Source: Cenococcum geophilum
Lineage: Eukaryota
Length of the DNA: 64,000 bases
Direction of reading: 5' to 3'
Assembly: GCA_050273025.1 (NCBI GenBank)
Contig: CP158635.1
Span: 16,306,001 to 16,370,000 of the forward strand
In this document: one piece after another, positions 29,259 to 64,000 of the stretch
Numbering within the stretch: the first letter of the stretch is position 1
How the letters are laid out: the number at the start of each line of letters is the position of its first letter
Made by a program: the position numbers and the translations under genes
The notes under the pieces: model-generated
The model's database searches: none
The model's input: the letters and a program-made list of their open reading frames with translations, nothing else
What the model was told of the DNA's origin: nothing

Positions 29259-29373
29259 GCTCCTTTTGAGTGTATGATAATTTACGAGTAGAGAACTAAC
29301 TTGTGGGTTATTGTGGGTTATTGAAGGAAAGATCAGTTGCAGAACTGAAAATGCGAGGAGGACTCAGCTCTTG

Positions 29374-29381: not shown

Positions 29382-30378
29382 CCCCGCCATTCCTCAATAA
29401 ATCCATCATCCTGGCTGTGTGAGAGTATGTCTAAGCACTAATTCGAAGAATTGGAGTCTAGTGGAAGACATATCTGCTGACATTCGACTCCACGATTCGA
29501 CGATTTCTCAATGGCTCGGGTGTAGCTCAAGCCACTTGCGGGGTCACGACAAAGCAAACCTCGCGAACGCAGTCGGTGGCTGCTAGCCAAGGCCCAGTAC
29601 CCATGCTGAAGCGTAAGAGTTACCTAGTATATTGATTGTATAGGACAGACACGCACCAGCGTGGTTTTCATTTTCAATATTGGCACTAATCAATATTAGC
29701 GAGTATTGGCGAGTACTGGATTTCCTCGGCTAACGCACGGTCTCACCTGACGCACGATTTTCCCGACCCCACTAAATCTATTTACAGTGGTGTTCACGGC
29801 TCGGCTGAGCGCCCGATCAGTCGCTGAGCCGCACGTGACGCATACAACCCCCGTCGACATTCGCGGGTATCGGAGGTCGGGGTTAGGCTTGGCATAACCT
29901 CGGGTTACGCACGACCCCCCAAGGTCCGCGACATATCGTCCAAATATCACCCCCCCCTTTTGGTGGTGGCCCCTACTTTTTAGACGCGTTTTTGAGGCCT
30001 AGGTTAGTACTAGGTTAGTATAGAGGACCTCGTCGCGCGCCTTCGACCTCATCGTCGCCTTAACAATCCATTTTTTAACCCTCTTCCTATTCTTATGCCC
30101 GCGCTAGCTCCTAGCTCGCGCGGGGCTTCTAGTTTTATATAAAACGGCCTACTATAATTCTAATTCTATAATATAGAGCTCTCTTCTTTTCCTCCTTTAT
30201 TAATATTTACGCGTTCGGTAGCTTTATTTACCTATACCCATACTATACTTACGCGTCTTCCCCCTAACCTCTTACGGAAATAAAGTCTTTTAAGAATCTT
30301 CTTACCCTATGGTCTACTTTATAGTCGAAAAAAGCCCCCCTAGCTTTCTCCTCCCCCTCTTCCTATAGCCTCTAGAAC

Positions 30379-32852
30379 GAATTTAAGGCCTAGATAGCAC
30401 GGCTATACAATATTTATAAGGCTTAGCGCTTAAAGAATACTATAAGGGCGTACAAGCCAAAGTAGAAAAAGTGGGAAGACTAGTGTATAAGATTAGAAGG
30501 CAATATAGACGGCGCCTAGGTAACAGAAGATAAGCTTTACCTATTTTTAAAGTAGTAAGTTATTAACTAAAAATTATAGGCTGCTAGCTATTAAAAACAG
30601 AAGTTAAAACAGAAAGAGATATAGAAAGATAGTAAGTGGGTAAAGAAGAGGTAGAAGACGGTTAAGCGGGTAAGGTAGCTAGAGGGGAAGTTAGCTATAG
30701 GGGCAGCCGTAGGGGTAGCTATAGGGGCAGCCATAGGCACAGGGGAGGAAGCTATAAAGGAGGAAGGGGAGATATAGGACGAGGAGGCCCTAGACGCCCT
30801 ATTTAATAAGATAGTCTAATACTTAGTTATAAATAGCTACGTCTCCGCTATTACCGAGCTTTATATATAGTAGTTAAAAGGTAAGACCTCGCAGCTACTA
30901 TAGGGGGCAAAGCTCTCAGTAGTACTAGATAGCGTCCGCTATAATAAGGACCGGATTTAACGCGTTAACTTTATTAATTAAGGCCTATTTATAATTACTA
31001 GCGGCTATAACGTTAAAGGGCTTAAAAAGGTAATTACTTAGTGCTAGGAGATAGGCTCTAAGATACTAGGTTTAGTTAAGTCTTACCTTTAAACTATAGC
31101 TAAGCATTTATTAGGTTTATATATACCCTACCTAGTCTATATAGCTACCGTTTTCTAACCTATTCCTTAGGCTATACTACTATTACCTATAGTAAAAGTA
31201 GATAAGACGTTTAGCTTGCTAACCTTATTTTTATTAAACTAGAGAATAAAGGGCCTAAACTAGATAAGTTAGCGCCGTGTATAATTATATTAATAATATA
31301 AGGGAAGCAGAATTAGTACGGTAAGGTTAAGTATATAGGCTATATACGGAACGCTAACCCTATCCTCTACCCCCTCTCTATAGTAACCTTTTACTTCTTT
31401 AACTACTAGGGTAAAGACGGCGCTAAGAGCTTCCTATCCTTTTAGTAGCTAAAGGACTACTATAACCTATACGTCTTCCCTAGCAGTATTAAAGTACCAT
31501 AATAGCCGCTAAGCTATTATATACAGTTTAAATAAAATAAAAAGATATTCTAGGGGGTAGGAATTTACTTAAAGAAGAAGACCTATAGCGCCTATAAGTA
31601 GAGCGTCTGGTATACTAAGCTTAGCGGCATTAAGGAGACCTAAATTAAATAGGCCGGACGCTGGAATATAGACGTGATAATAGGAGCCTACCTTAGCTAC
31701 CTACCCTATATATTTATACGGTTGATTACCGGCTTCCTAAAGAAAGGAAAGGGCTACTTTCTTCCCTACATATGGGAGGTGCTAAAGGAGGCCCTTTATT
31801 TAAAGATATGGCCTAAGACTAATGTCTAGCTAAAACGCATAGAGGCCTACTATCTAGGTAGGGCTAATAATAAGGTTATATAGCTTAACCTTATAGGCTT
31901 AGGATTTCTACGCCTCCTTCGTATACTTAGGGTAATCCTATTATAGGACTTAGTAATCCTACGTAAGTAGTTCCCGCTCTACCCCCTATAGAAGGACCCC
32001 CTCTTTAGCTATAAGGAGTACTAAAGGTTTGCTATATAGGTAAAAAGCTTACTAGCTAATATAGTTACGCTAGATAAGCTAATAATACGGAAATACTAGC
32101 CTACCTATAAGGCCGTAGCTAAGCTAAAATATAAGGCCGCGATCTCTAAAATAAAGGGGGTTTAATTATATATATAGACGATCTTAAAACGCCTTAGCAA
32201 AATAGAAAGGTTATTAGCATTATTCGCACCTATATAGATTTAGTAAGAGAAGATAGGTATCTAAATAGGGCCTATAGAGTCTGTATATCTACCTTTAGGC
32301 GAGCCTATACCATCTACTATAGCGTCTACTATATCCGCGCCGCCTACTCTGCTATCTATAATATCCATACTACCCGCTTAGCTGCTATCTATAATATCCA
32401 CACCGTCCGCTTAGCTATCTATAATATTCATACTATCTACTTAGCTGTCTATAATATCTATACCGCCTACTTAGCCGTCTACTATATCCGTATCACCCCT
32501 ATTAGCGTAGGTATAAGCTAATACTTAACTATCTCTCCTATTTATCCTTAACCTATAGGCGCCGCTAAGGAAATATAAAATGCTTTAAGGCGGTAATTTA
32601 GTCTTCTAGCTCTGGACTAAGTAGACTTTAGGGCTAGCGGATAGGCCGTTAATTAAAGCTCTTAATTGCTGCTAGGGGGTACGCTAGCGGGTTAACGGTA
32701 AGGCTATATTTTATAGCCGTCGCTATAAAATAATTAAGGATATAAGACGGCGTGTAGAAAACGGTACGGCAAGAGATAAGAGATAGGCTATTAACTAGCT
32801 AGAATAGCTATAAGGTCAGCGTTCTTTAGATTGGCTTTATAAGAATATTTAA
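30379..32852 (+). pseudogene. CryptonF-type tyrosine recombinase (Ndc10-like core + GCR1_C), RIP pseudogene; 5' start not resolved
   Basis: De-RIP reading: KNTIRAYEPKQKEW, VTEDKLCLFL, NEGP, GKQNQHGKVEY, CPLS, KKTHSARK (HxxR), RAGRWN..MTGAYL, C-terminal LWTEWTLG..GPSIEALD..WG..WR; probable intron ~31110-31170. Confidence 0.85.
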
Positions 32853-32862
32853 ATAGTTATTT

Positions 32863-33210
32863 TACTATAGTAACTAAGACGCCTTAATATATAACTGCAC
32901 TATAGTAACTAAGACGCCTCTATATATAATTATACTATAGTAACTAAGACGCCTTAATATATAACTATACTGTAGTAACTAAGATATCTTAATATAGGAC
33001 TATACTAGTAACCAAGACGTTTTAATATAGGACTATACTATAGTAACCGAGATGCCTTAATATATAACTATACTATAGTGACCAAAACGTCTTAATATAG
33101 GACTATACTATATTAACCGAGACGCCTTAATATAGGACTATACTATAGTAATTAAGACGTCTTAATATAGGACTATACTATAGTAATTAAAACGCCTTAA
33201 TGTAGGAATA
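32863..33210 (+). repeat. 35 bp minisatellite, ~10 units, 3' of the C1 gene
   Basis: Unit ~TACTATAGTAACTAAGACGCCTTAATATA(TA/GG)ACTA; one unit is 33 bp; no spacers. Confidence 0.92.
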
Positions 33211-33705
33211 GAGCCCATTTAGGTATTATAAATTTAGAGTAATATTATATAACCATCTAGAAGTACTAATCTAATATAAATTATATACCTTTTCGCCTAA
33301 AATCGCGTGCGAAAGTACTTGGGGGCGGTTACTACGCGACCTTATATAGGGTTCGGGCGCGTTATTAATAGGGGTAGCCCTAACCTCGTATTAACCCAGG
33401 TCGTAACCGCGCTAAATTAGCCCCCCCGATATGTGATAGATATCTACAGCCAAGCCTATAGCCAAGCCGTGGACATCTATCACATATTAGGGGGGCTGAT
33501 TTGGCACAGTTACGACCCGGGTTAATACGAGGTTAGGGCCATCCCTACTAATAACGCGCCTAAACCCCATATAAGGTCGCGTAGCAATCGCCCCTAAGTA
33601 CTTTTACACGCGATTTTAGGCGAAAAGGTATATAATTTATATTAGATCGGTACTTCTAGATGGTTATATAATATTACTCTAAATTTATAATACCTAAACG
33701 GGCTC

Positions 33706-34053
33706 TATTCCTACATTAAGGCGTCTTAGTTGCTATAGTATAGTCCTATATTAAGACGTCTTAATTACTATAGTATAGTCCTATATTAAGGCGTCTCGGT
33801 TAATATAGTATAGTCCTATATTAAGACGTTTCGGTTACTATAGTATAGTTATATATTAAGGCGTCTTAGTTACTATAGTATAGTCCTATATTAAAACGTC
33901 TTGGTTACTAATATAGTCCTATATTAAGATATCTTAGTTACTATAGTATAGTCGTATATTAAGGCGTCTTAGTTACTATAGTGTAATTATATATAGAGGC
34001 GTCTTAGTTACTATAGTGCAGTTATATATTAAGGCGTCTTAGTTACTATAGTA
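33706..34053 (-). repeat. 35 bp minisatellite, mirror copy in C1b
   Basis: Reverse complement of 32863-33210. Confidence 0.9.
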
Positions 34054-34063
34054 AAATAACTAT

Positions 34064-36537
34064 TTAGATATTCTTATAAAGCCAATCTAAAGAACGCCGA
34101 CCTTATAGCTATTCTAGCTAGTTAATAGCCTATCTCTTATCTCTTACCGTACCATCTTCTACACGCCGTCTTATATCCTTAATTATTTTACGGCGACGGC
34201 TATAGAATATAGCCTTACCGTTAACCCACTAGCGTACCCCCTAGTAGTAATTAAGAGCTTTAATTAACGGCCTATCCGCTAGCCCTAAAGTCTACTTAGT
34301 CTAGAGCTAGAAGACTAAATTACCGCCTTAAAGCATTTTATATTTCCTTAGCGGCGCCTATAGGTTAAGGATAAATAGGAGAGATAGTTAAGTATTAGCT
34401 TATACCTACGCTAATAGGGGCGATGCGGATATAGTAGATGGCTAAGTAGGCGGTATAGATATTATAGACGGCTAAGTAGATAGTATAAATATTATAGATA
34501 GCTAAGCGGACGGTGCGGATATTATAGATAGCGGCTAAGCAGGTAGTATGGATATTATAAATAGTAGAGTAGGTAGCGCGGATATAGTAGACGCTATAGT
34601 AGACGGTATAGGCTCGCCTAAAGGTAGATATACGGACTCTATAGGCCCTATTTAGATACCTATCTTCCCTTACTAAATCTATATAGGTGCGAATAATGCT
34701 AATAACCTTTCTATTTTGCTAAGGCGTTTTAAGATCGTCTATACGTATAATTAAACCCCCTTTATCTTAGAGATCGCGGCCTTATATCTTAGCTTAGCTA
34801 CGGCCTTATAGGTAGGCTAGTATTTCCGTATTATTAGCTTATTTAGCGTAACTATATTAGCTAGTAAGCTTTTTACCTATATGGTAAACCTTTAGTACTC
34901 CTTATAGCTAAAGAGGGGGTCCTTCTATAGGGGGTAGAGTGGGAACTACTTATATAGGATTACTAAGTCCTATAATAGGATTACCCTAAGTATATAAAGG
35001 AGGCGTAGAAATTCTAAGCCTATAAGGTTAAGCTATATAACCTTATTATCAGCCCTACCTAAATAGTAGGCCTCTATACGTTTTAGCTAGACGTTAGTCT
35101 TAGGCTATATCTTTAAATAGAGGGCCTCCTCTAGCACCTCCTATGCGTAGAGAAGAAAGTAGCCCTTTTCTTTCTTTAAGAAGCCGGTAATCGACCGTAT
35201 AAATACATAGGGTAGGTAGCTAAGGTAGGCTCCTATTATCGCGTCCGTATTCCAGCGTTCGGCCTATTTAATTTAGGTCTCCTTAACGCCGCTAAGCTTA
35301 GTATACCAGACGCTCTACTTATAGGCGCTATAGGTCTTCTTCTTTAAGTAAATTCCTACCCCCTAGAATATCTTTTTATTTTATTTAAACTGCGTATAAT
35401 AGCTTAGCGGCCGTTGCGGTATTTTAATACTGCTAGGGAAGACGTATAGGTTATAGTAGTCCTTTAGCTACTAAAAGGATAGGAAGCTCTTAGCGCCGTC
35501 TTTACCCTAGTAGTTAAAGAAGTAAAAGGTTACTATAGAGAGGGGGTAGAGGATAGGGTTAGCGTTCCGTATATAGCCTATATACTTAACCTTACCGTAC
35601 TAATTCTGCTTCCCTTATATTATTAATATAATTATACACAGCGCTAACTTGTTTGGTTTAGGCCCTTTATTCTCTAGTTTAATAAAAATAAGGTTAGTAA
35701 GCTAAACGTCTTATCTACTTTTACTATAGGTAATAGTAGTATAGCCTAAGGAACGGGTTAGAAAACGGTAGCTGTATAGACTAGGTAGGGTATATATAAA
35801 CCTAATAAATACTTAGCTATAGTTTAAAGGTAAGACTTAACTAAACCTAGTATCTTAGAGCCCATCTCCTAGCACTAAGTAATTACCTTTTTAAGCCCTT
35901 TAACGTTGTAGCCGCTAGTAATTATAAATAGGCCTTAATTAATAAAGTTAACGCGTTAAATCCGGTCCTTATTATAGCGGACACTATCTAGTACTGCCGA
36001 GAGCTTCGCCCCCTATAGTAGCTGTAAGGTTTTACCTTCTAACTACTATATATAAAGCTCGGTAATAGCGGAGACGTAGCTATTTATAACTAAGTATTAG
36101 ACTATCTTGTTAAATAGGGCGTCTAGGGCCTCTTTATCCCATATCTCCCCTTCCTCCTTTATAGCTTCCTTCCCTATGCCTACGGCTGCCCCTACGGCTG
36201 CCCCTACGGCTGCCCCTATAGCTAACTTCCCCTCTAGCTGCCCTACCCGCTTAACTATCTTCTACCTCTTCTTTACCTACTTACTATCTTTCTATATCTC
36301 TTTCTGTTTTAACTTCCATTTTTAATAGCTAGCAGTCTATAATTCTTAGTTAATAACTTACTGCTTTAAAAATAGGTAAAGCTTATCTTCTATTACCTAG
36401 GCGCCGTCTATATTGCCTTTTAGTCTCGCGCACTAGTCTTCCTACTTTTTCTACTTTAGCTTATACGCCCTTGTGGTATTCTTTAAGCGCTAAGCCTTAT
36501 AAATATTGTATAGCCGTGCTATTTAGGCCTTAAATTT
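34064..36537 (-). pseudogene. CryptonF-type tyrosine recombinase, C1 copy b, RIP pseudogene
   Basis: Mirror of 30379-32852. Confidence 0.85.
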
Positions 36538-37292
36538 GTTCTAGAGGCTATAGGAAGAGGGGGAGGAGGAAGCTAGGGGGGCTTTTTTTGACTATAAAGT
36601 AGACCATAGGGTAAGAAGATTCTTAAAAGACTCCATCTCTGTAAGAGGTTAGGGGGAAGACGCGTAAGTATAGTATAGGTATAGGTAAATAAAGCTACCA
36701 AACACGTAAATATTAATAGAGGAGGAGAAGAAGAGAGCTCTATATTATAGAATTAGAATTATAATAGGCCGTTTTATATAAAACTAAAAGCCCCGTATAA
36801 GCTAGGAGCTAGCGCGGGTATAAGAATAGGAAGAGGGTCAAAAAATAGATTGTCGAGGCGACGATGAGGTCAAAGGCGCGCGACGAGGTCCTCTATACTA
36901 ACCTAGTACTAACCTAGGCCTTAAAAACGCGTCCAAAAAGTAGGGGCCACCACTAAAAGGGGGGGGTGATATTTGGACGATATGTCGCGGACCTTAGGGG
37001 GTTGTGCGTAACCCGAGGTTATGCCAAGCCTAACCCCGACCTCCAATACCTTTAAATGTCTTTACCCCCGCTAATCGAGTCGCTAATGCGCGCGTACTAT
37101 TGGCCTATTGGGCCAGCTATGCGCCTATGTATTTACCCTATGCGGTAAGGTCACTTATCCACGTCGCTGAGCGGTTAGTAGGTAGGGTAGGTATACTTTC
37201 TCTACCTCTCCTCCCCGGTCTATATCTGCGTATATATAAAAAATAGGAACCCCCCTAGGGCGCCGCTTCTCCAGCAGCGTCCTATCTTAAAA

Positions 37293-39534
37293 ATGGCGTT
37301 AATTAGTCGCGTAGAGATTAACGTCGCGAATAATGCCAAACTACGCGCTAACGCGTAGAGCATTCTCGCCCTTACGCGTGCCGAGAGGCCTAAAAACACG
37401 TCTCTAAATTATAAGCCGAAGTAGAAGGAGTTTAAGGTAGGTAGCTAGGTGCTTTACGGAGTAGTATACTTATAGCTAACGCGCGTCTTTCTAGGCCTTT
37501 TATAAGAAGAAGCAGTACTATAATAATAATACCGTTATAGAAGAAAAGCTACTCCTTTTCCTTATTAAGGAGGTTATAGGCCGGCCACTAAAAGTAAAAA
37601 GCCGTAAGGCCAGTAATAATATACCCTAGGATGAGACGCGGCTCTTCTAGCGCTTAGTTCGCGGCTATATTATGGCCCTAACGGACTTTTATTAGGCGTA
37701 GAAGGCTATAGGGATAAATAGCCACTAGTTCCTATAGGAGGATAATATTTAGGAGTACCTAAAGATTCTATAACGGAGGGACGCGTAGTAGGAAAAGGAC
37801 TAGTTCGCGGATAAGGGTAGAGATATATTGCTTAACGGATATACGGAGGACGAGTTTAAGAACGTCTGCCGCTAGCTATAGGCCCGCGGAGACTCCTTGC
37901 CGGAATGCTACCTCCGCATGCTTATAGATATCCTACTAGGCTACTATATGCTTACCCGCGGTGGCGACAGGCGCTCTACTAAGATCTTAGACCTATTTAC
38001 CTTTAAGTTTAAGGGCGAAGGCCCTATGCGCTATATGCCCCTAATATTTACTATACGCGCTAGTAAGTAGAACTAGTATAGCCGCCTTAAAACTATTAGG
38101 GCTCTATATAATATAAAGCCGCTTATCTATATACTTAGTGGGCTAGCTTTTTACCTCTTATACCGCTAGGACCTTAGCAATAAGCTATTCCTAGACTTTA
38201 GTAAGCGGTTAGCGTGGTATAATATCCGCCTAATTAAGAGTAGTGCTAGGGACTGTAAGGCGGCCTTCTTATATAACTTATAGCGGGAGTAGGTTGCTAA
38301 GGCGTTTTAGTACGTTAGCGTCTTCTTATAGAAGAAGACCTATATTAGACGAAGCGCTAGCGCTAAGACAGTAGAGCTAAAAGGGGTTAGTAAGGACCAG
38401 ATTAGACGCGCTAGTAGGTAAAACTAGGAGCAAATGGTTGGCTACTACTTAAACTCGCTACTATAGGAGTTTATGCGGACGATAGCTGGCTATACGCCGT
38501 AGATAGGCTGCTTTGAAATTTATAGGGCAAGCGTCGCCCCCCCTAACGTACTACTATTAATAATCTAGCCAGAGCTAAATATCTAAAAGGGTTAGTTTAG
38601 CCCTTAGGTTGGCTAGATTAATAACCTTATAGCTATAGGCGCTATAAACCTCCTATTCTACCTTTAGGAGGTTATCTTATAGGACTTAGTAGTCCTCCGC
38701 AAAATGTTCTTAAGTAGCCCTATATAGAACCACCCGGTTTTTTAGTATAAGGCCTATCTACCCTTTACGCAGAAGGTTAAAGCCTACCTATAGTAAAAGG
38801 AAGAAGGCCCTAGCTAGCTATTAATACTCTACTAAGCCGTACTAGCTATTATGGACTGCCTAAAGACTATAGACGCCTAGAATAACTAGAGAGTATATAA
38901 GAATAATAAGAGAGTATATAAGCTGTAGGCGTTATTTAACCATATAGCTAAGTCCTAGTAGGCGCAGTCTTTGCAGCTTTAATTGCTTATGTCTAGTAGC
39001 CTTACCTTTTGGCTTAAGGTCCCTTTAGTACGTCTACTAATAGCACGTTTACTAGCGCCTCTATCTATCGCGGGATTAAGCTAGTATGCGTTAGCCCGGG
39101 CGAGCGCTATAGCTTCCCCTTTACCGGCGCCGCCGCAGCTATAGTTATAGCTGTAACTATAGCTGTAGTAAGGGCCTAAGTCTAAGCTTAAGCTTAAGCT
39201 CTAGCCTAAGCAGCCGCCCGTGTATTATATATACCATATAGTAAAGTCTATATAGGCCCTTTGGCGCAAGTAGACTAAGGGGCTTAGAGGTAATCCTTTT
39301 ATAGTAGCGCTAGATTCTAAATAGAGTAGTAAATAGCGGGCTAGCCGGCAGAATAAGCTCTAATAGTATTCCCTACGGCTTAAGGTTATTAAGGAGATTA
39401 AGCGGGTTATATAGGCCTAGAGGGTTAGTAAGGAAGCGGCTATATAGTAGGTTAATCTATAGTAGGAGTAGATGCAGTGCTTATTAGATTAGCTTTGTAA
39501 ACGGCTTTAAGTAAGTAGAAAAGCTTTTAAATAG
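37293..39534 (+). pseudogene. CryptonF-type tyrosine recombinase + GCR1_C (C2 unit 1), one intron 37437-37494, RIP pseudogene
   Basis: ATG at 37293; GTAGGT...GCTAAC...CTAG intron; de-RIP motifs RPKNT, VTEEKLLLFL, DKGRDTLLDGY, HYMLTRGGDRR, EGPTRC, GKQNQHGR, KKTHIGR, RRAGRWN..M.GCYL, LWREWTEGL.GNPS..ALD.KWG.KWR. Confidence 0.88.
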
Positions 39535-40268
39535 TATATATCTTTAAAATACTAAGGGGTCTTCTATTAAGTCTTCTATTAAAACCTTTATTTATAGCCC
39601 CCTAGGGGCTTATTTTAGTGCGGTATAAGTTTAGTAGGGTACTTATATAATAGCGGTGCCTAACTTAAAATATAAATATCTTTATTAACCTACGGCCAAT
39701 TCTTACCATTCTAGTGCGAGTAGAGAGCTCTTGGCCGGCTCTACGCATAGCGCTTAATAGGTATTAAGAGTGCGGCGTTGCTGGTGATTATAGATCGACT
39801 ATAGATATGGGGTAATATCCATATGCCGCTAAGCGCATGGGCCTCTTCGCTTGCAAAATCTAACTTAGTGGCTAATTTAGCTATATAAATCGAACTATAG
39901 ATATACTATTGGTATTTACGGCTTAGCTAAGCGCCTAATTAGTTGCTAAGCCGTATATAACGCATATAACCCCCATTAATATTCGCGGATATTTACAGCC
40001 GAGCCTATAGCTAAGCCGTAGACATCTTTAAATATCTTTACCCCCGCTAATCGAGTTACTAATACGCGCGTACTATTGGCCTATTAGGCCAGCTATGCGC
40101 CTATATATTTACCCTATGCGGTAAGGTTACTTATCTATATCGCTAAGCGGTTAGTAGGTAGGGTAGGTATGCTTTCTCTACCTCTCCTCCCTGGTCTATA
40201 TCTGCGTATATATAAAAAATAGGAACCCCCTTAGGGCGCCGCTTCTCTAGCAGCGTCCTATCTTAAAA

Positions 40269-42510
40269 ATGGCGTTAATTAGTCGCGTAGAGATTAATAT
40301 CGCGAATAATACCGAACTACGCGCTAACGCGTAGAGTATTCTCGCCCTTATATATGCCAAGAGGCCTAAAAATATGTCTCTAAATTATAAGCCGAAGTAG
40401 AAGGAGTTTAAGGTAGGTAGCTAGGTGCTTTATAAAGTAGTATACTTATAACTAACGCGCGTCTTTCTAGGCCTTTTATAAGAAGAAGTAGTACTATAAT
40501 AGTAATACTGTTATAGAAGAAAAGCTACTCCTTTTCCTCATTAAGGAGGTTATAGGCCGGCCACTAAAAGCAAAAAGCTATAAGGCTAGTGATAATGTAC
40601 TTTAGGACAAGACGCGGCTCTCCTAGCGCTTAGTTTATAGTTATATTACGGCCCTAATAGACCTCTACTAGGCGTAGAAGGCTATAGGGATAAATAGCCA
40701 CTAGTTCCTATGGGAGGATAATATTTAGGAGTACCTAAAGATTCTATAACAGAGGGATGTGTAGTGGGAAAAGGACTAGTTTATAGATAAGGGTAGAGAT
40801 ATACTACTTAACGGATATATAGAGGACGAGTTTAAGAACGTCTACCGCCAGCTATGGGCCCACGGAGACTCCTTGCCGGAATGCTACCTCCGCACGCTTG
40901 TAGATATCCTACTAGGCCACTATATACTTACCCACGGCGGCAACAGGCGCTCCGCTAAGATCTTAGACCTATTTACCTTTAAGTTTAAGGGTAAAGGCCC
41001 TACGCGCTATATGCCCCTAATATTTACTATATACGCTAGTAAGCAGAACTAGTATAGCCGCCTTAAGACTATTAGGGCTCTATATAATAAGAAGCCACTT
41101 ATCTATATACTTAGCGGGCTAGCTTTTTACCTCTTATACCACTAGGACCTTAGTAACGAGCTATTCCTAGACTTTAGTAAGCGGTTAGTGTGGTATAATA
41201 TCCGCCTAATTAAGAGCAGTACTAGGGACTATAAGGCGGCCTTCTTATATAACTCGCAGCAGGAGTAGGTTGCTAAGGTGTTTTAGTATATTAGCGTCTT
41301 CTTATAGAAGAAGACCTATATTGGATAAAGCGCTAGCGCTAAGATAGTAGAGCTAAAAGGGGTTAGTAAGGACTAGATTAGACGCGCTAGTAGGTAGAAC
41401 TAGGAGCAGATGGTTAGTTGCTACTTAAACTTGCTACTATAGGAGTTTATACGGACGATGGCCGGCTATATACCGTAGATAGGCTGCTTTGAGATTTGTA
41501 GGGCAAGCGTTACCCCCCCTAACGTACTACTATTGACAATCTAGCCAGAGCTAGATGTCTAGAAGGGTTGGTTTAGCCCTTAGGTCGGCCAGATTAACGA
41601 TCTTATAGCTATAGGCGCTATAAACCTCCTATTCTACCTTTAGGAGGTTATTCTATAGGACTTAATAGTCCTTTGCGAAATATTCCTAAGCAGCCCTATA
41701 TAGAACCACCTAGTCTTCTAGTATAAGGCCTATCTACCCTTTACGCGGAAGGTTAAAGCCTGCCTATAGTAGGAGGAAGAAGGCCCTAGCTAGCTATTAA
41801 TACTTTACTAGGCCGTGCTGGCTATTGTGGACTGCCTAAAGACTATAAACGCCTGGAATAACTAGAGAGTATATAAGAATAATAAGAGAGTATATAAGCT
41901 ATAGGCGTCGTTTAACCGTATAGCTGAGTCCTAGTGGGCGCAGTCTTTACAGCTTTAATTGCTTATGTCTAGTAGCCTTACCTTTTAGCTTAAGGTCCCT
42001 TTAGTATATCTATTAACGGCACGTCTACCGGCGCCTCTATCTATCGCGGGATTAAGCTAGTATGCGTTGGCCTAGGTAAGCGCTATAGCTTTCCCTTTAC
42101 CGGCGCCGCCGCAGCTATAGCTATAGCTATAACTATAGCCGTAGTAAGGGCCTAAGTCTAAGCTCGAGCTTAAGCTCCAGCTTAAGTAGCCGCCTGTGTA
42201 TTGTATGTGCTATATAGTAAAGTTTATACGGGCCCTTTAGCGCGAGTGGACTAAGGGGCTTAGAGGTAATCCTTCTGTAATAGCGCTAGATTCTAAATAG
42301 GGCAGTAAATAGCGGGCTGGCCGGTAGAATAAGCTTTAATAGTATTCCCTATAGCTTAAGGTTATTAAGGAGATTAAGCGGGTTGTATAGGCCTAGAGGG
42401 TTAGTAAGAAAGCGGCTATATAGTAGGTTAATTTATAGTAGGAGTAGATATAGTGCTTACTAGATTAGCTTTATAAATGGCTTTAAGCAGGTAAAAAAGC
42501 TTTTAAATAG
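40269..42510 (+). pseudogene. Crypton C2 recombinase, unit 2
   Basis: Colinear with unit 1 at offset +2976. Confidence 0.88.
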
Positions 42511-43244
42511 TATATATCTCTAAAATACTAAGGGGTCTTCTATTAAGTCTTCTATTAAAACCTTTATCTATAGCCCCCTAGGGGCTTATTTTGGTACGGT
42601 ATAAGTTTAATAGGGTACTTATACAATAGTAGTGCCTAACTTAAAATATAAATATCTTTATTAACCCACGGCCAATTCTTATTATTCTAGTGCGAGTAGA
42701 GAGCTCTTGGCCGGCTCTACGCATAGCGCTTAATAGGTATTAAGAGCGCGGCGTCGCTAGTGATTATAGATCGACCGTAGATATAGGGTAATATCTATAT
42801 GCCGCTAAGCGCACAGGCCTCTTCGCCTGTAAAATCTAACTTAGCGGCTGATTTAGCTATATAAATTAAACCGTAGATATACTATTAGTATTTATGGCTT
42901 AGCTAAGCGCCCGATTAGTCGCTAAGCCGTATATAACGCATATAACCCCCGTTAATATTCGCGGATATCTATAGCTAAGCCTGCAGCCAAGCCGTGGACA
43001 TCTTTAAATGTCTTTACCCCCGCTGATTAAGTCGCTAATACGCGCGTACTATTGGCCTATTGGGCTAGCTATGCGCCTATATATTTACCCTATGCGGTAA
43101 GGTTACTTATCCGCGTTACTGAGCGGTTAGTAGGTAGGGTAGGTATGCTTTCTTTACCTCTTTTCCCTGGTTTATATCTGCGTATATATAAAAAATAGGA
43201 ACCCCCCTAGGGCGCTGCTTTTCTAGCAGCGTCCTATTTTAAAA

Positions 43245-45486
43245 ATGGCGTTAATTAGTTGTGTAGAGATTAACGTCGCGAATAATGCTAAACTACGCGC
43301 TAACGCGTAGAGTATTCTTGCCCTTATATGTGCTAAGAGGCCTAAAAATATGTCTCTAAATTATAAGCCAAAGTAGAAGGAGTTTAAGGTAGGTAGCTAG
43401 GTGCTTTATAGAGTAGTATACTTATAGCTAACGCGCGTCTTTCTAGGCCTTTTGTAAGAAGAAGTAGTACTATAATAGTAATACCGTTACGGAAGAAAAG
43501 CTACTCCTTTTCTTTATTAAGGAGGTTATAGGTTAGCCACTAAAAGCAAAAAGCTATAAGGCTAGTGATGACGTACCCTAAGACGAGACGCGGCTCTCCT
43601 AGCGCTTAGTTCGCGGCTATATTACGGCCCTAATGGACCTTTACTGGGCGTAGAAGGCTATAGGGATAAATAGCCACTAGTTCCTACGGGAGGATAACGT
43701 TTAGGAGTATCTAAAGATTCTATAATAGAGGGACGCGTAGTAGGAAAAGGACTAGTTTGCGGATAAGGGTAGAGATATACTGCTTAACGGATATATAAAG
43801 GACGAGTTTAAGAACGTCTGCCGCTAGCTATGGGCCCGCGGAGACTCCTCGCCGGAATACTACCTTCGCATGCTTATGGATATCCTACTAAGCCACTATA
43901 TACTTACCCGCGGCGGTAACAGGCACTCCGCTAAGATCTTAGACCTATTTACCTTTAAGTTTAAGGGCGAAGGCCCTACGCGCTATATGCCCCTAATATT
44001 TACTATATGCGCCGGCAAGTAGAACCAGTATAGCCGCCTTAAGACTATTAGGGCTTTATGTAATAAGAAGCTACTTATTTATATACTTAGCGGGCTAGCT
44101 TTCTACCTCTTATACCGCTAGGACCTTAGCGACGAGCTATTCCTAGACTTTAGTAAGCGGTTAGTATAGTATAATATCCGCCTAATTAAGAGCAGTGCTA
44201 GGGACTATAAGGCGGCCTTCTTATATAACTCGCAGCGGGAGTAGGTTGCTAAGGCGTTTTAGTATATTGGCGTCTTCTTATAGAAGAAGACCTATATTAA
44301 ATAAAGCGCTAGCGCTAAGATAGTAGAGCTAAAAGGGGTTAGTAAGGACTAGATTAGATACGCTAGTAGGTAGAACTAGGAGTAGATAGTTAGCTGCTAC
44401 TTAAACTCGCTATTATAGGAGTTTATGCGGACGATGGCTGGCTATACGCCGTAGATGGGCTGCTTTGAGATTTGTAGGGTAAGCGTTGCCCCCCCTAACG
44501 TACTACTATTGACGATCTGGCTAGAGCTAGACGTCTAAAAGGGTTGGTTTAGCCCTTAGGTTGGCTAGATTAATAACCTTATAGCTATAGGCGCCACGAA
44601 CCTTCTATTCTATCTTTAGAAGGTTATTTTATAGGACTTAGTAGTCCTCTGCGAAATGTTTCTAAGTAGCCCTATATAGAACTACCCGGTCTTTTAGTAT
44701 AAGGCCTATCTACCCTTTACGCGGAAGGTTAAAGCCTGCCTATAGTAGGAGGAAGAAGGCCCTAGCTAGCTATTAATACTCTACTAGGCCGTGCCGGCTA
44801 TTGCGGACTGCCTAAAGACTATAGACGCCTAGAATAACTAGAGAGTACGTAAGAACAATAAGAGAGTATATAAGCTATAGGCGTTGTTTAACTATATAGC
44901 CGAGTCCTAGTGGGCGCAGTCTTTGTAGCTTTAATTGCTTATATCTAGTAGCCTTACCTTTTAGCTTAAGGTCCCTTTGGTATATTTACTAACAGTACAT
45001 CTACCGGCGCTTCTATCTATTGCGGGATTAAGCTAGTATACGTTGGCCCGGGCGAGCGCTATAGCTTCCCCTTCGCCGGCGCCGCCGCAGCTATAGCTAT
45101 AGCCGCAACTATAGCCGCAGTAAGGGCCCGAGTCTAAGCTTAAGCTTAAGCTCTAGCCTAAGCAGCCGCCCGTGTATTGTATATACCGCGCAGTAAAGTC
45201 TATACGGGCCCTTTAGCGTAAGTAAACTAAGGGGCTTAGAGGTAATTCTTTTATAGTAGCGCTAGATTTTAAATAGGGTAGTAAATGGCGGGCCGGCTGG
45301 CAGAACGAGCTTTAATGGTATTCCCTACGGCTTAAGGTTATTAAGGAGATTAAGCGGGTTGTGTAGGCCTAGAGGGTTAGCGAGGAAGCGGCTATATAGT
45401 AGGTTAATCTATAGCAGGAGTAGATATAGTGCTTACTAGATTAGCTTTATAAACGGCTTTAAGTAGGTAGAAAAGCTTTTAAATAG
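43245..45486 (+). pseudogene. Crypton C2 recombinase, unit 3
   Basis: Colinear with unit 1 at offset +5952. Confidence 0.88.
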
Positions 45487-46220
45487 TATATATCTCTAAA
45501 ATACTAAGGGGTCTTCTATTAAGTCTTCTATTAAAACCTTTATCTATAGCCCCCTAGGGGCTTATTTTAGTGCGGTATAAGTTTAGTAGGGTACTTATAT
45601 AATGGCGGTACCCAACTTAAAATATAAATATCTTCATTAACCTACGGCTAATTCTTACTATTTTAGTGCGAGCAGAGAGCTCTTGGCTGGCTCTACGTAT
45701 AGCGCTTAACAGGTGTTAAGAGCGCGGCGTCGCTAGTAATTGTAGATTGACTATAGATATGGGGTAATATCTATATGCCGCTGAGCGTATAGGCCTCTTT
45801 GCCTGCAAAATCTAACTTAGCGGCTGATTTAGCTATATAAATCGAACCATGGATATACTATTGGTATTTACGGCTTAGCTAAGCGCCCAATTAGTTACTA
45901 AGCCGTATATAATGTATATAACCCCCGTTAATATTTATAGATATCTACGGCTAAGCCTACAGCCAAGCCGTGGACATCTTTAAATGTCTTTACCCCTGCT
46001 AATTAAGTCGCTAATACGCGCGTACTATTGGCCTATTGGGCCAGCTATGCGCCTATATATTTACCCTATGCGGTAAGGTTACTTATCCGCGTCGCTGAGC
46101 GGTTAGTAGGTAGGGTAGGTATACTTTCTCTACCTCTCCTCCCTAGTCTATATCTGCGTATATATAAAAAATAGGAACCCCCCTAGGGCGCCGCTTCTCT
46201 AGCAGCGTCCTATCTTAAAA

Positions 46221-48462
46221 ATAGCGTTAATTAGTCGTGTAGAGATTAACGTCGCGAATAATGCTAAACTACGCGCTAACGCGTAGAGTATTCTCGCCCT
46301 TACGCGTACTAAGAGGCCTAAAAATATGTCTCTAAATTATAAGCCGAAGTAAAAGGAGTTTAAGGTAGGTAGCTAGGTGCTTTATAGAGTAGTATACTTA
46401 TAGCTAACGCGCGTCTTTTTAGGCCTTTTATAAGAAGAAGCAGTACTATAATAGTGATACCGTTATAGAAGAAAAGCTACTCCTTTTCCTTATTAAGGAG
46501 GTTATAGGCTGGCTATTAAAAGTAAAAAGCTATAAGGTTAGTAACGATATACCTTAAAACGAGACACGGCTCTCCTAACGCTTAGTTCGCGGCTATATTA
46601 TAGCCCTAATAGACCTCTACTAGGCGTAGAAGGCTATAGGGATAAACAGCCACTAGTTCCTATAGGAGGATAATATTTAGGAGTACCTAAAGATTCTATA
46701 ACGGAGGGACGCGCAGTAGGAAAAGGACTAGTTCGCGGATAAGGGTAGAGATATACTGCTTAACGGATATATAGAGGACGAGTTTAAGAACGTCTGCCGC
46801 TAGCTATAGGCCTGTAGAGACTCCTTGCCGGAATACTACCTCCGTACGCTTATAGATATCCTACTAGGCTACTATATACTTACCCGCGGCGGCGACAGGC
46901 GCTCCGCTGAGATCTTAGACCTATTTACCTTTAAGTTTAAGGGCGAAGGCCCTACGCGCTATATGCCCCTAATATTTACTATACGCGCCGGTAAGTAGAA
47001 CTAGTATAGCCGCCTTAAGACTATTGGGGCTCTATGTAATAAGAAGCCGCTTATTTATATGCTTAGCGGGCTAGCTTTCTACCTCTTATACCGCTAGGAC
47101 TTTAATAACGAGCTATTCCTAGACTTTAGTAAGCGGTTAGTGTAGTATAATATCCGCCTAATTAAGAGCAGTGCTGGGGACTGTAAGGCGGCCTTCTTAT
47201 ATAACTTGTAGCGGGAGTAGGTTACTAAGGCGTTTTAGTATATCGGCGTCTTCTTATAGAAGAAGACCTATATTAGACAAAGCGCTGGCGCTAAGATAGT
47301 AGAGCTAAAAGGGGTTAGCGAGAACTAGATTAGACGCGCTAGTAGGTGGAACTAAGAGTAGATGGTTAGCTGCTACTTAAACTTACTACTACGGGAGTTT
47401 ATACGGATAATGGCCGGCTATACGCCGTAGATAGGCTGCTTTAAGATTTATAGGGCAAGTGTTGCCCCCCCTAACGTACTACTATTGATAATCTAGCCAG
47501 AGCTAGATGTCTAAAAGGGTTGGTTTAGCCCTTAGGTTAGCTAGATTAACGACCTTATAGCTATAGGCGCCATAAACCTCCTATTCTACCTTTAGGAGGT
47601 TATCCTATAGGACTTAGTAGTCCTCCGCGAAATATTCCCAAGTAGCCCTATATAAAACTACTTAGTCTTTTAGTATAAGGCCTATCTACCCTTTACGCGG
47701 AAGGTTAAAGCCTACCTATAGTAGGAGGAAGAAGGCCCTAGCTAGCTATTAATACTCTATTAGGCCGTGCTGGCTATTATAGACTGCCTAAAGACTATAG
47801 ACGCCTGGAATAACTAGAGAGTATATAAGAATAATAAGAAAGTATATAAGCTATAGGCGTTATTTAACTGTATAGCTAAGTCCTAGTGGGCGCAGTCTTC
47901 GTAGCTTTAATTGCTTATATCTAGTAGCCTTACCTTTTAGCTTAAGGTCCCTTTGGCACGTTTACTAACAGTATATCTACTAGCGCCTCTATCTATCGCG
48001 GGATTAAGCTAGTATACGTCGGCCTGGGCGAGCGCTGTAGCTTCCCCTTTACCGGCGCCGCCGCAGCTATAGCCGCAGCCGTAACTATAGCTATAGTAAG
48101 GGCCCGAGTCTAAGCTTAAGCTTAAGCTTTAGCCTAAGTAGCCGCCTATATATTATATATGCCGCGCAGTAAAGTCCGTATAGGCCCTTTAGCGTAAGTA
48201 GACTAAGGGGCTTAGAGGTAATCCTTTTATAGTAGCGCTAGATTCTAAATAGGGTAGTAAATAGCGGGCTAGCTGGTAGAACAAGCTCTAATAGTATTCC
48301 CTATGGCTTAAGATTATTAAGGAGATTAAGCGGGTCGCGTAGGCCTAGAGGGTTAGTAAGGAAGCGGCTATATAGCAGGTTAATCTATAGTAGGAGTAGA
48401 TATAGTACTTACTAGATTAGCTTTATAAACGGCTTTAAGCGGGTAAAAAAGCTTTTAAATAG
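46221..48462 (+). pseudogene. Crypton C2 recombinase, unit 4
   Basis: Colinear with unit 1 at offset +8928; ATG mutated to ATA. Confidence 0.88.
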
Positions 48463-49196
48463 TATATATCTCTAAAATACTAAGGGGTCTTCTATTAAGT
48501 CTTCTATTAAAACCTTTATCTATAGCCCCCTAGGGGCTTATTTTAGTGCGGTATAAGTTTAGTGGGGTATTTATATAATGGCGGTGCCTAACTTAAAATA
48601 TAAATATCTTTATTAACCTACGGCCAATTTTTACCATTCTAGTGCGAGTAGAGAGCTCTTGGCCGGCTCTACGCATAGCGCTTAATAGGTATTAAGAGCG
48701 CGGCGTCGCTGGTAATTGTAGATTAACTGTAGATATAGGGTAATATCTATATACCGCTAAGCGCACGGGCCTCTTCGCCTGCAAAATCTGACTTAGCGGC
48801 TAATTTAGCTATATAAATTAAACCATGGACATACTATTAGTGTTTACGGCTTAGCTAAGCGCCTAATTAGTTGCTGAGCCGCATATAACGTATATAACCC
48901 CTATTAATATTCGCGGATGTTTATAGCTGAGCCTGTAGCTAAGCCGTGGATATCTTTAAATATCTTTACCCCTGCTAATTAAGTCGCTAATACGCGCGTA
49001 CTATTGGCCTATTAGGCCAGCTATGCGCCTATATATTTACCCTATGCAGTAAGGTCACTTATTCACGTCGCTAAGCGGTTAGTAGGTAGGGTAGGTATGC
49101 TTTCTCTACCTCTCCTCCCTAGTCTATGTCTGCGTATATATAAAAAATAGGAACCCCCCTAAGGCGCCGCTTCTTTAGCAGCGTCCTATCTTAAAA

Positions 49197-51422
49197 ATGG
49201 CGTTAATTAGTCGCGTAGAGATTAATATTATAAATAATACCGAACTACGCGCTAACGCGTAGAGTATTCTCGCCCTTACGTATGCTAAGAGGCCTAAAAA
49301 TACATTTTTAAATTATAAGCCAAAGTAGAAGGAGTTTAAGGTAGGTAGCTAAGTGCTTTACAGAGTAGTATACTTATAGCTAACGCGTGTCTTTCTAGGC
49401 CTTTTATAAGAAGAAGTAGTACTATAATAGTAATACCGTTACGGAAGAAAAGCTACTTCTTTTCCTTATTAAGGAGGTTATAGGCTGGCCACTAAAAGCA
49501 AAAAGCCGTAAGGCTAATAATAATGTACCCTAGGACAAGACGCGGCTCTCCTGGCGCTTAGTTTGCGGCTATATTACGGCCCTAATAGACCTTTACTAGG
49601 CGTAGAAGGCTATAGGGATAAATAGCCACTAGTTTCTATGGGAGGATAATATTTAGAAGTACCTAAAGATTCTATAACGGAGGGACGCGTAGTAGGAAAA
49701 GGACTAGTTCGCGGATAAGGGTAGAGATATACTACTTAATGGATATATAGAGGATAAGTTTAAGAATATCTGCCGCCAGCTATGGGCCCGCGGAGACTCC
49801 TCGCCAGAATGCTACCTCCGCACGCTTGTGGATATCCTACTAGGCCACTATATGCTTACTTATAGTGGCGATAGGCGCTCTGCTAAGATCTTAGACCTAT
49901 TTACCTTTAAGTTTAAGGGCGAAGGCCCTACGCGCTATATGCCCCTAATATTTACTATACATACTAGTAAGTAGAACTAGTATAGCCGCCTTAAGACTAT
50001 TAGGGCTCTATATAATAAGAAGCCGCTTATCTATATACTTAGCGGGCTAGCTTTTTACCTCTTATACTATTAGGACCTTAGCAACAAGCTATTCCTAAAC
50101 TTTAGTAAGCGGTTAGCGTAGTATAATATCCGCCTAATTAAGAGTAGTGCTGGGGACTATAAGGCGGCTTTCTTATATAACTTGTAGCGGGAGTAGGTTG
50201 CTAAGGCGTTTTCTTATAGAAGAAGACCTATATTAGATAAAGCGCTGGCGCTAAGATAGTAGAGCTAAAAGGGGTTAGCGAGGACTAGATTAGATACGCT
50301 AGTAGGTAAAACTAGGAGTAGATGGTTAGCTATTACTTAAACTCGCTACTACGGGAGTTTATACGGACGATAGCTGGCCATATACTGTAAATAGGCTGCT
50401 TTAAGATTTATAGGGCAAGCGTTGCCCCCCCTAATGTACTACTATTAACGATCTAGCTAGAGCTAGATATTTAAAAGGGTTAGTTTAGCCCTTAGGTTGG
50501 CTAGATTAATAACCTTATAGCTATAGGCGCTACGAACCTCCTATTCTACCTTTAGGAGGTTATCTTATAGGACTTAGTAGTCCTTCGCGAAATGTTTCTA
50601 AGCAGCCCTATATAGAACTACCTAGTCTTCTAGTATAAGGCCTATCTACCCTTTACGCGGAAGGTTAAAGCCTACCTATAGTAGGAGGAAGAAGGCCCTA
50701 GCTAGCTATTAATACTTTACTAGGCCGTACTAGCTATTACGGACTGCCTAAAGACTATAGACGCCTGGAATAACTAGAGAGTATATAAGAATAATAAGAG
50801 AGCATATAAGCTGTAGGCGTTATTTAACCGTATAGCCGAGTCCTAGTAGGCGCAGTCTTTATAGCTTTAATTGCTTACGTTTAATAGCCTTACCTTTTAG
50901 CTTAAGGTCCCTTTGGCACGTTTACTAACGGCACGTCTATTAGCGCCTCTATTTATCACAGGATTAAGCTAGTATATATTGGCCCGGGTAAGCGCTATAG
51001 CTTCCCCTTTACCGGCACCGCCGTAGCTATAGCTGTAGCTGTAACTATAGCTGTAGTAAGGGCCTAAGTCTGAGCTTGAGCTTAAGCTTTAGCCTAAGCA
51101 GCCGCCCGTGTATTATATATGCCGCGCAGTAAAGTCTATATAGGCCCTTTAGCGTAAGTAGACTAAGGGGCTTAGAGGTAATCCTTTTATAGTAGCGCTA
51201 GATTCTAAATAGGGCAGTAAATAGCGGGCTAGCCGGTAGAATGAGCTCTAATAGTATTCCCTACGGCTTAAGGTTATTAAGAAGATTAAGTGGGTTGCGT
51301 AGGCCTAGAGGGTTAGTAAGGAAGCGGCTATATAGTAGGTTAATCTATAGTAGGAGTAGATATAGTACTTACTAGATTAGCTTTATAAACGGCTTTAAGC
51401 GGGTAGAAAAGCTTTTAAATAG
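49197..51422 (+). pseudogene. Crypton C2 recombinase, unit 5 (16 bp deletion at ~50210)
   Basis: Colinear with the other units apart from the deletion. Confidence 0.88.
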
Positions 51423-52380
51423 TATATATCTCTAAAATATTAAGGGGTCTTCTATTAAGTCTTCTATTAAAACCTTTATCTATAGCCCCTTAGGGGCTTA
51501 TTTTAGTGCGGTATAAGTTTAGTAGGGTACTTATATAATAGCGGTGCTTAACTTAAAATATAAATATTTTTATTAACCTATAGCTAATTCTTACCATTCT
51601 AGTGCAAGTAGAGAGCTCTTAGCTGGCTCTACGTATAGCGCTTAATAGGTGTTAAGGGCGCGGCGTTGCTAGTAATCGTAGATCAACTGTGGATATAGGG
51701 TAATATCTACATACCGCTAAGCGTATGGGCCTCTTCGCCTGCAAAATCTAACTTAGCGGCTGATTTAGCTATATAAATTAAACCGTGGACATACTATTGA
51801 TATCCCCTCCTTAGCGAGTTACAGATTCGCTACGCGTATCCAATTTCGCCTGGTTGCCACCAGCTGTATATAGTAATTATAGTGAACGGCTGTGGCTGCA
51901 CGTAAGGTCCTTTTTGGTTACCCTGGAGAATCGCCTTGGTTGGCCAGGAGAATTAAATTAAAGACGACGCTTCCTTTTCTCTCCTTTAACTATGCCTCCA
52001 TTATGCCCGCCAAAACGCGAATACAACGCTGTCTCTGCAGAGGGGTTGACAAAGTTTAGCAATATCGTACAGGTGGAAGCCTCACGATATTTGACAAAGA
52101 TCACAACACTGCGGAGGAAGGCCGCCAGAAGTAATGTTCTTGCAGCCAAGTACAGCCTGTACGACCTCCAGTGTCCCCCCCCCCTATATACGCGCAGCAC
52201 ACACACCTAATTTCGCTACGTCTGCAGCTAAATTAGTATGTAGAGCTAGCAGGAAGGGGTGTAGTACATGGCCAGGGCTTAAGCCACGGCCTATAGCTCG
52301 GATTTGAAGCTGTTCTCTCTTACCAAAAGTTATAATATTGCCTTTAGATCCTAATGTTTTACCCTATTCCCTTCTTTAAT

Positions 52381-63588: not shown

Positions 63589-64000
63589 CAGCCTGTTGCA
63601 CGACCAGCTTCACCCCCCCCTTTAACGAGTGCTCCAAAATTTCAAATTCGGTACGCGCATCCAATCTCGCGAGTAATTGTAGCGAACGGCTGTGGCTACA
63701 CGCAAAGACCTTTTTGGTTGCCATGGAGAATCGCATTGGTTGGCCAGGAGAATCAAATTGAAGATGTACGCTTCCTGTTCTCCCCCTACGCCTGCCGTTG
63801 TGGCCGCCAAAACGCGAATACAACACTGTCTCTGCAGAGAGGTCGATGAAATTTGGCAGTGTCGTACGGGTGGAAACCTTACGACATTTAACAAAGATCA
63901 CGGCACTGCGGAGGAAGGCCTCCAGAAACAAAGTTCTTGCAGCCAAGCATATGGCTTCGCTACAATTACTACGTACAGCTGGTGGCAACCAGGCGAAATT
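63589..64000. mobile_element. MITE copy 2 (same family as copy 1), runs off the right edge
   Basis: Starts TA|CAGCCTGTTGCACGACCAGCTTCACCCCCCCC; 63670-63950 aligns with 51870-52150; the right TIR starts at ~63955. Confidence 0.85.

Follow-up and report, generated by a model that had tools for sequence, protein, structure and literature searches.

The stretch of DNA analysed here, 64,000 nt of Cenococcum geophilum (contig CP158635.1; hereafter the window), contains two nested families of decayed elements, C1 and C2, both of which are assigned below to the CryptonF type. The outer family forms the C2 array on the plus strand (29790..51799), in which five units of a 2976-bp element follow each other head-to-tail. 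The units start at 29790, 39912, 42888, 45864, and 48840, the last one being 2960 bp long, and they align without gaps across 2976 columns. Unit 1 hosts two copies of the inner, 3573-bp element: C1a on the plus strand (29867..33439), with the left end GTATCGGAGG and the right end CCCCCGATAT-GTGATAG, and C1b, inverted, on the minus strand (33477..37049). When both are excised in silico, unit 1 returns to exactly 2976 bp. The region 33426-33490 is the center of the 3.6-kb inverted repeat that the two copies create, the arms of which (29856-33450 and 33466-37060) are 95% complementary. C1a and C1b are separated by 37 bp of C2 (33440..33476, plus strand), which run from the right arm of one palindromic site (site 1; ATATC, ancestrally ATGTC) to the left arm of the next (site 2; GACAT). 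C1a is preceded by the first 77 bp of unit 1 (29790..29866, plus strand), ending in the site 1 left arm CCGTCGACAT and its spacer TCGCGG, and C1b is followed by the site 2 spacer CTTTAA and right arm ATGTC (37050..37060, plus strand). No further copies of C1 or C2 were found elsewhere in the window.

The surroundings hold features of their own. RIP-free DNA adjoins the C2 array on the left and contains the one long open frame in the neighborhood of the elements (28380-29363, minus strand); this frame encodes 327 aa with about seven repeats of W-x-W-C-x-K-C ... G-G-x-H ... S-G-x-Y and matched no Pfam family. Right of the array, the segment 51872-52150 recurs 11.8 kb further on, at 63672-63947 (85-88% alike). 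Inverted, RIP-mutated copies of an LTR-retrotransposon-like element, 77-90% alike, occupy 13400-18100 and 53200-57900, and reverse transcriptase and RNase H domains can be read through the stops at 13602-17300 (plus strand).

C1 and C2 have been degraded by RIP. Among the C2 units 575 columns vary, of which 574 are C/T or G/A, as expected of RIP, and one is A/T; a comparison of C1a with C1b over 3573 nt shows 184 transitions and neither transversions nor indels. The dinucleotide ratios agree: TpA/ApT is ∼2.0 in the elements vs 0.81 in the left flank, and (CpA+TpG)/(ApC+GpT) is 0.26-0.45 vs 1.25. One stretch has been spared. The 77-bp stub left of C1a (29790-29866) matches the de-RIP consensus of C2 at every position and carries no RIP mutation, and over the same stretch the other four units are heavily mutated, which suggests that RIP acted after C1 had severed the stub from the rest of unit 1. 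The stub is in its own right a natural case of RIP sparing a short isolated repeat. As for coding capacity, the de-RIP consensus of the five C2 units holds no frame longer than 121 aa, and an intact recombinase gene was found neither in the window nor in the related loci described below, where the longest frame is 151 aa.

What kind of elements are these? Pfam searches in which RIP stops were read through as X recovered two domains in one frame of C2 unit 1: a tyrosine-recombinase remnant (NDC10_II, PF16787; 37702..38757, plus strand; E 9.9e-47, 160 bits) and a GCR1_C DNA-binding domain remnant (PF12550; 39235..39453, plus strand; E 9e-7, 29.5 bits, above the cut-off of 23). C1a has an NDC10_II remnant as well (PF16787; 31161..32021, plus strand; E 8.1e-21, 74.8 bits) and, in its frame, a weak GCR1_C-like remnant (PF12550; 32574..32804, plus strand; E 8.7e-4) whose 20 bits fall below the cut-off of 23. 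NDC10_II is a domain that we take to be related to, or derived from, the tyrosine recombinases of Cryptons. Remnant motifs that may include the catalytic R-H-R-Y residues are visible in the read-through translations, all copies being RIP-mutated; a comparison of the C2 recombinase remnant with solved structures gave no match at E <=0.01. C1 and C2 are classified, from these translations, as RIP-degraded tyrosine-recombinase transposons of the CryptonF type; the combination of a recombinase with GCR1_C is given as the CryptonF architecture in passages of Kojima and Jurka (2011, PMC3212892). With 33% identity between their recombinase remnants over 311 residues, C1 and C2 represent different families.

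The junctions can be read base by base. C1a is embedded as GACAT (29856-60)-TCGCGG (29861-66)|GTATCGG...CCGATAT-GTGATAG (29867-33439)|ATATC (33440-44), and C1b, on the minus strand, as GACAT-TTAAAG|GTATTGG...CCTAATAT-GTGATAG|ATGTC; the arrangement GACAT-N6-GTRTYRR occurs twice in the window, where 0.02 occurrences are expected. The C2 array is bounded by ACAGTG|GTGTTC on the left (29789|29790) and GGACAT-ACTATTG|ATATCC on the right (51799|51800). An earlier, sequence-only reading of this DNA had quoted these three sets of junctions, and all of them read back, with ATATC in place of its ancestral form ATGTC to the right of C1a. The other C2 units supply the corresponding empty sites. Units 2-5 read ...GACAT-TCGCGG|ATGTC...GACAT|CTTTAA-ATGTC..., or, after de-RIP, CCGTCGACAT-TCGCGG|ATGTCTACGG-(17 bp)-CCGTGGACAT|CTTTAA-ATGTCTTTAC. 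Both empty sites are matched in unit 3 (42954..43012, plus strand; GAYAT-N6-ATRTY twice) and in unit 4 (45930-45988), and site 2 is the sole site matched in unit 2 (40021-40036) and unit 5 (48949-48964). Filled and empty sites differ by the element alone, hence there is no target-site duplication; the fixed-length duplication that marks DDE cut-and-paste elements is lacking. Contigs of three public runs (3, 3, and 1 contigs) bridge the joint 29866->33440 in the same manner, with one base that fits either side. The lack of a target-site duplication, proposed earlier from the junctions, is thus confirmed by empty sites within the array itself and by the bridging contigs.

Could the inverted pair have formed with no insertion by a recombinase, C1a and C1b being the halves of a palindromic duplication, or could the arrays be the outcome of rolling-circle (Helitron-like) copying? 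Two arms of 3.6 kb that are 95% alike and only 37 bp apart would suit a duplication, and tandem arrays, which are typical of rolling-circle elements, would suit the copying. Yet the outer flanks of C1a and C1b differ, each matching its own empty site in units 2-5, and the 37-bp center keeps its original orientation, namely that of the empty units. As for a Helitron, the elements are too short for its protein, the C1 ends read GTATC...GATAG and not as the characteristic ends of that class, and the plus strand of the scanned C1a and C2 parts yielded NDC10_II and GCR1_C only, with no Rep/helicase. The 31 independent insertions with common exact ends, described below, speak against both versions, and we consider this explanation extremely improbable.

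A feature that links the two families is the palindromic character of their joined ends. At the internal head-to-tail joints of C2 (39895..39921, plus strand, and then with a period of 2976 bp), the ancestral sequence CCGTGGACAT-ACTATTG|GTGTTCACGG consists of 10-bp inverted arms, 8/10 complementary, around a 7-bp spacer. The joined ends of C1, CCCCCGATAT-GTGATAG|GTATCGGAGG, form a 10-7-10 palindrome too, again with arms 8/10 complementary, and in both families the joint between element and chromosome coincides with the arm/spacer boundary. C2 has four palindromes built on the half-site CCGTGGAYAT: the joint and three others with 6-bp spacers, found at unit positions 62 (site 1), 105 (site 2), and 2864 (site 3). 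Site 3, with the de-RIP sequence CCGTGGATAT-GGGGTA-ATATCCACAT (39804..39819, plus strand; again at 42780, 45756, 48732, and 51692), is present in every unit ∼100 bp before the right end as GAYAT-RGGGTA-ATATC, with arms CCGTGGATAT. The joint and sites 1-3 thereby place four recombinase-type sites within ∼250 bp of the joined ends of C2. In the literature covered by the search, no paper on palindromic Crypton joints or on head-to-tail Crypton arrays was found.

C1a occupies site 1 and C1b occupies site 2, and none of the five third sites is occupied by C1 (0/5). Of the 15 such palindromic sites in the array, 2 are therefore filled. Since two C2 palindromes hosted the C1 copies, the 6-bp target spacer that the earlier reading had raised to a general rule is the spacer of C2's own sites and a property of these particular landing places. 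It does not extend to C2, which has no GACAT-like arm 6 bp to its left, nor to the other C1 insertions, only 2 of 30 of which match GAYAT at 4/5 or better. The frame GACAT-N6-ATGTC accordingly stands at both C1 sites in the window, but it is peculiar to the C2 palindromes and leaves a faint trace in the 30 flanks: over the positions -11..-7, GAYAT is matched at a mean of 2.2/5, other offsets giving 1.3-1.8, and no flank matches 5/5.

These 30 flanks come from a survey of further C1 insertions. A RIP-tolerant pattern of the C1 left end, used in one metagenome scan, matched 57 loci on 41 contigs, from three data sets that possibly represent one organism. The pattern fixes purine or pyrimidine at positions 5-7, so it would miss ends rewritten over at least 5 bases. 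Right ends were located by an anchor upstream of the terminal 7-mer, so that its count was not forced by the search, and the chromosomal right junctions are a small sample (10) drawn solely from sequence up to 4 kb away from a left end. C2 was not found in these loci. The scan gave 67 left ends, 36 of them head-to-tail joints and 31 chromosomal junctions. Each of the 67 starts with GTAT, and AG directly precedes it in all 31 chromosomal flanks; beyond AG no other position is fixed, and among the 30 left flanks compared none of the 435 pairs is alike. At the other end of the element, RIP variants of GTGATAG are present at 46/46 right ends and in all 36 head-to-tail joints, which upholds the claim of a constant right-hand 7 bp. 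The 10 chromosomal right flanks read A6/G3/C1 at +1, T10 at +2, A9/C1 at +3, and T8/G2 at +4, and only one of them has the full GTATYRR start. The C1 target AG|RTAT repeats what the element itself carries at its joint, ATAG|GTATC; for C2 the arrangement is parallel, the element having TG|GTGT and the target TG|ATAT.

Seven insertions have both junctions, and against AGGTAT they match at 6, 6, 5, 5, 5, 5, and 4 of 6 positions. In three of the seven the direct repeat is perfect: AGGTA, AGGTAT, and AGGTATC (5, 6, and 7 bp). The poorest cores are those in the window, where C1a matches 3/6 and C1b 4/6. An ancestral left end GTGTC, which would give better repeats in the window, was considered and rejected, as all 67 left ends read GTAT though the pattern allowed G. 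The tabulation of other insertions thus produced the very direct repeats that the sequence-only reading had named as evidence against itself. Its view of the last G (or TG) as the one shared part was incomplete, given that AG is invariant (31/31) and RTAT follows to the right of the joint, and its suggestion that homology of 1-2 bp is enough does not agree with seven paired insertions that match at 4-6 of 6 positions.

Pieces related to C1 are numerous among the contigs of public runs. Four runs compared with C1a contain thousands of diverged pieces, 12,217 of them in X1, contig depth being no measure of copy number; run X21 has next to none of the sampled words and diverged pieces only. Loose contig ends coincide to the base with 29866 (12 and 16 contigs) and 33443 (8 contigs). 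The consensus of these ends was considered as a source of the arm at -11..-7, where X5 reads GATAT and X1 reads ATTAA, and was set aside as too weak, with an agreement of 0.44-0.47. Within C1 there are two tandem repeats, of 30 bp x ∼6 and 35 bp x ∼10 (32307-32489 and 32863-33207, mirrored at 33709-34053 and 34428-34611), parts of which are omitted or duplicated in contigs of other runs. Arrays occur among the relatives: one contig (L001-L003, L008, L009, L050, L051) holds at least seven head-to-tail units of 3498 bp, and another (L012-L015) at least five of ∼3603 bp, all RIP-mutated. The unit lengths of the relatives, 3498, 3537, and 3603 bp, compare with 3573 bp here, and our guess is that such differences come down to the number of tandem repeats.

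What mechanism would produce these junctions? The reading that we prefer, with a probability of roughly 0.78, is that C1 and C2 are distinct CryptonF elements inactivated by RIP, which inserted by the canonical core recombination of Cryptons, leaving an imperfect short repeat and no duplication, and that the right-hand 7 bp are the element's end. Each element would presumably move as a circle, whose joined ends would make up a lox-like site of 10-bp imperfect inverted arms and a 7-bp spacer. A tyrosine recombinase, probably the one encoded by the element, would join the site on the circle with a chromosomal copy of its 6-7 bp core at the boundary of spacer and right arm, the C1 core AG|GTAT(C) using the target AG|RTAT and the C2 core TG|GTGT using TG|ATAT. 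The integrated element would then be flanked by an imperfect short direct repeat with no duplication, and its right-hand 7 bp would be its own end. For such an enzyme the junctions of a resident copy would be ideal targets, which would account for the head-to-tail arrays. No circles were seen among the contigs; the head-to-tail joints that were seen (in X1 and X6, with a single contig in either run and single-copy depth in the former, and in the related loci) represent chromosomal arrays. The C1 copies in the window would have entered poor cores (3 and 4 of 6) within C2 palindromes that resemble the whole C1 site. These two insertions suggest that the palindromic C2 arms attracted C1 in spite of the weak cores, and that recognition of the arms can make up for a poor core.

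The earlier reading had favored a different mechanism, modeled on Tn916 and CTnDOT, the integrases of which are tyrosine recombinases, accept non-identical sequence between their cut sites, and leave no target-site duplication. Exchange would take place over non-homologous 6-7 bp coupling sequences with 1-2 bp of identity, the arms GACAT and ATGTC framing a 6-bp spacer. C1 and C2 share with these systems the lack of a duplication; both C1 targets in the window show the exact frame, AG alone is conserved left of the joint, and the slight excess of GAYAT at -11..-7 (2.2 vs 1.3-1.8 of 5) points the same way. However, the coupling sequences of Tn916 derive from the previous flank, change at each move, and hence vary among insertions, whereas the C1 7-mer is invariant at 46/46 ends and in all 36 head-to-tail joints. 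Since the 7-mer never varies, the comparison with Tn916 fails. The sequence right of the joint is conserved as well (T 10/10, A 9/10, T 8/10), three of seven pairs have perfect direct repeats of 5-7 bp, and the GACAT arm is missing both from most C1 targets, 2/30 of which reach 4/5, and from the target of C2 itself. A Tn916-like exchange is therefore, in our view, very improbable.

Another question concerns the polarity of the junctions. The earlier reading had noted a polar inheritance of the spacers, and the larger sample bears this out: the 7-mer stays with the right end (it is at 0/31 left junctions and missing from 0/10 right junctions), bases of the target remain on the left, and at +1 all 31 left junctions, like both in the window, have retained the G of the element. 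The target base at +1 is not G in 7 of 10 targets, nor in the two in the window. If a heteroduplex over +1..+4 were split at random, A would be expected at about one-third of the left ends; it is observed at 0/31, for which the chance is ∼10^-6, an estimate that relies on right-flank base frequencies and a left-end pattern that is biased; as a counterweight to this bias, just 1 of the 10 right flanks begins with a complete GTATYRR. With G always at +1 on the left, the canonical two-strand model has to be supplemented by one of two assumptions: that repair is biased, or that the exchange point is fixed at AG| (e.g., one strand pair plus replication). Either would account for a crossover that resolves at AG| in every case.

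One form of a fixed exchange point is one-strand exchange: only the strand pair cut at AG|G would be exchanged, leaving a Holliday junction for replication or host factors to resolve. Precedents are the integration of CTX phage and, in integrons, attC x attI recombination. Such a process would keep the Crypton framework, alter its chemistry, and make polarity obligatory, in line with the strict pattern seen (no upstream 7-mer or A at +1 in 31 left junctions, GTGATAG at all 10 right ones). It would also agree with the position of the joint at the arm/spacer boundary of a 10-7-10 palindrome in C1 and C2, and with spacers of unequal length, 7 bp in the element and 6 bp in the C2 sites, which are awkward for a paired two-strand exchange. 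On the other hand, plain arm recognition, or an AGRTAT overlap of 6 bp whose ends are conserved, would equally predict the conserved TAT at +2..+4; an equal polarity could arise by biased G.T repair; and the sampling bias of the left ends applies here too. We regard one-strand exchange as rather improbable. A broader proposal is that Crypton recombinases act on a lox-like 10-7-10 site with the crossover fixed at one spacer/arm boundary, by one-strand exchange plus replication or otherwise asymmetrically, and that C1 additionally uses C2 palindromes as landing pads. If true, it would explain the fully polar inheritance of the spacer and of the mismatched +1 base, and why a single half-site plus AG suffices as a target; it is unlikely as a whole.

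With canonical core recombination as the preferred reading, no new insertion rule is revealed by this locus, and the junctions of C1 and C2 are ordinary for Cryptons. RIP, together with a tolerated mismatch at +1, hid an ordinary terminal repeat from the earlier reader, and the case shows that RIP plus one such mismatch can mask a Crypton terminal repeat. The value of the locus lies elsewhere: a single array offers filled sites next to empty ones, the lox-like palindrome formed by the joined ends can be read directly for two Crypton families, and the target logo AG|RTAT emerges cleanly from dozens of independent insertions. In addition, full polarity at a mismatched position is a testable clue to strand exchange by poorly studied eukaryotic recombinases.

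How do C1 and C2 relate to the systems already described? Cre/loxP, Flp/FRT, and Xer/dif use inverted arms around a 6-8 bp spacer and cut at the arm/spacer boundary. The C1 and C2 sites are like them in having two inverted arms, a short spacer, and a joint at the arm/spacer boundary; for core sites of this kind, arms of 11-13 bp and spacers of 6-8 bp are cited in passages of Kojima and Jurka (PMC3212892). They are unlike them in that the partner site usually has one recognizable half-site only, that the identity of the spacer is not kept, and that homology spans the boundary of spacer and right arm and not the spacer.

CryptonF transposons of fungi and oomycetes were reportedly described by Goodwin et al. 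in 2003. C1 and C2 share with CryptonF a length of ∼3-3.6 kb, one gene with a tyrosine-recombinase domain (followed by GCR1_C in C2 and by a below-cut-off, GCR1_C-like remnant in C1), the lack of a target-site duplication, and terminal direct repeats of 6 bp that are often imperfect and agree with the target. The terminal repeats listed for CryptonF include AGGTAG/AGWTAT, TTGRTA, CAGTAT, and CTGGTATT/CTGATACTT (Kojima and Jurka 2011, PMC3212892, Additional file 1). The C1 pair AGGTAT/AGRTAT resembles AGGTAG/AGWTAT of CryptonF-2_TS, CAGTAT, and CTGGTATT/CTGATACTT, with the same tolerated purine position, and the C2 pair TTGGTG/TTGATA resembles TTGRTA of CryptonF-2_CGlo. As the core repeats match these listings, the junctions are canonical for Cryptons, and the departure from the Crypton description once claimed for them is not supported. 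Passages of the same paper treat the 4-6 bp repeats of Cryptons as recombination substrates (PMC3212892), and parts of two later accounts present Crypton terminal repeats as microhomology with the target and not as a duplication (PMC13465315, 2026; PMC9977147).

Some traits go beyond this picture. Cryptons are described, in the passages cited, as having no terminal inverted repeats (PMC3212892), unlike C1 and C2 with their 10-bp imperfect inverted arms (8/10); these short arms refine the description of Cryptons and do not exclude membership. Also distinct from CryptonF as described are the long head-to-tail arrays, with five units here and at least seven in the L001-L003 contig, the very many contig pieces in the runs, and the three extra palindromic sites carried by C2. 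A last comparison is with CryptonF-1_cRei of Chlamydomonas, an element seen transposing, which in parts of its published account has the terminus CACCG and the target CAYCG, leaves the target intact upon excision, and mediates rearrangements through inverted-pair insertions (PMC9977147). Host and core differ, and its copies are active whereas all C1 and C2 copies are RIP-mutated. As far as those parts of the account go, CryptonF-1_cRei resembles the elements described here in its terminus, which matches a degenerate target, in its intact target upon excision, and in its insertion in inverted pairs.
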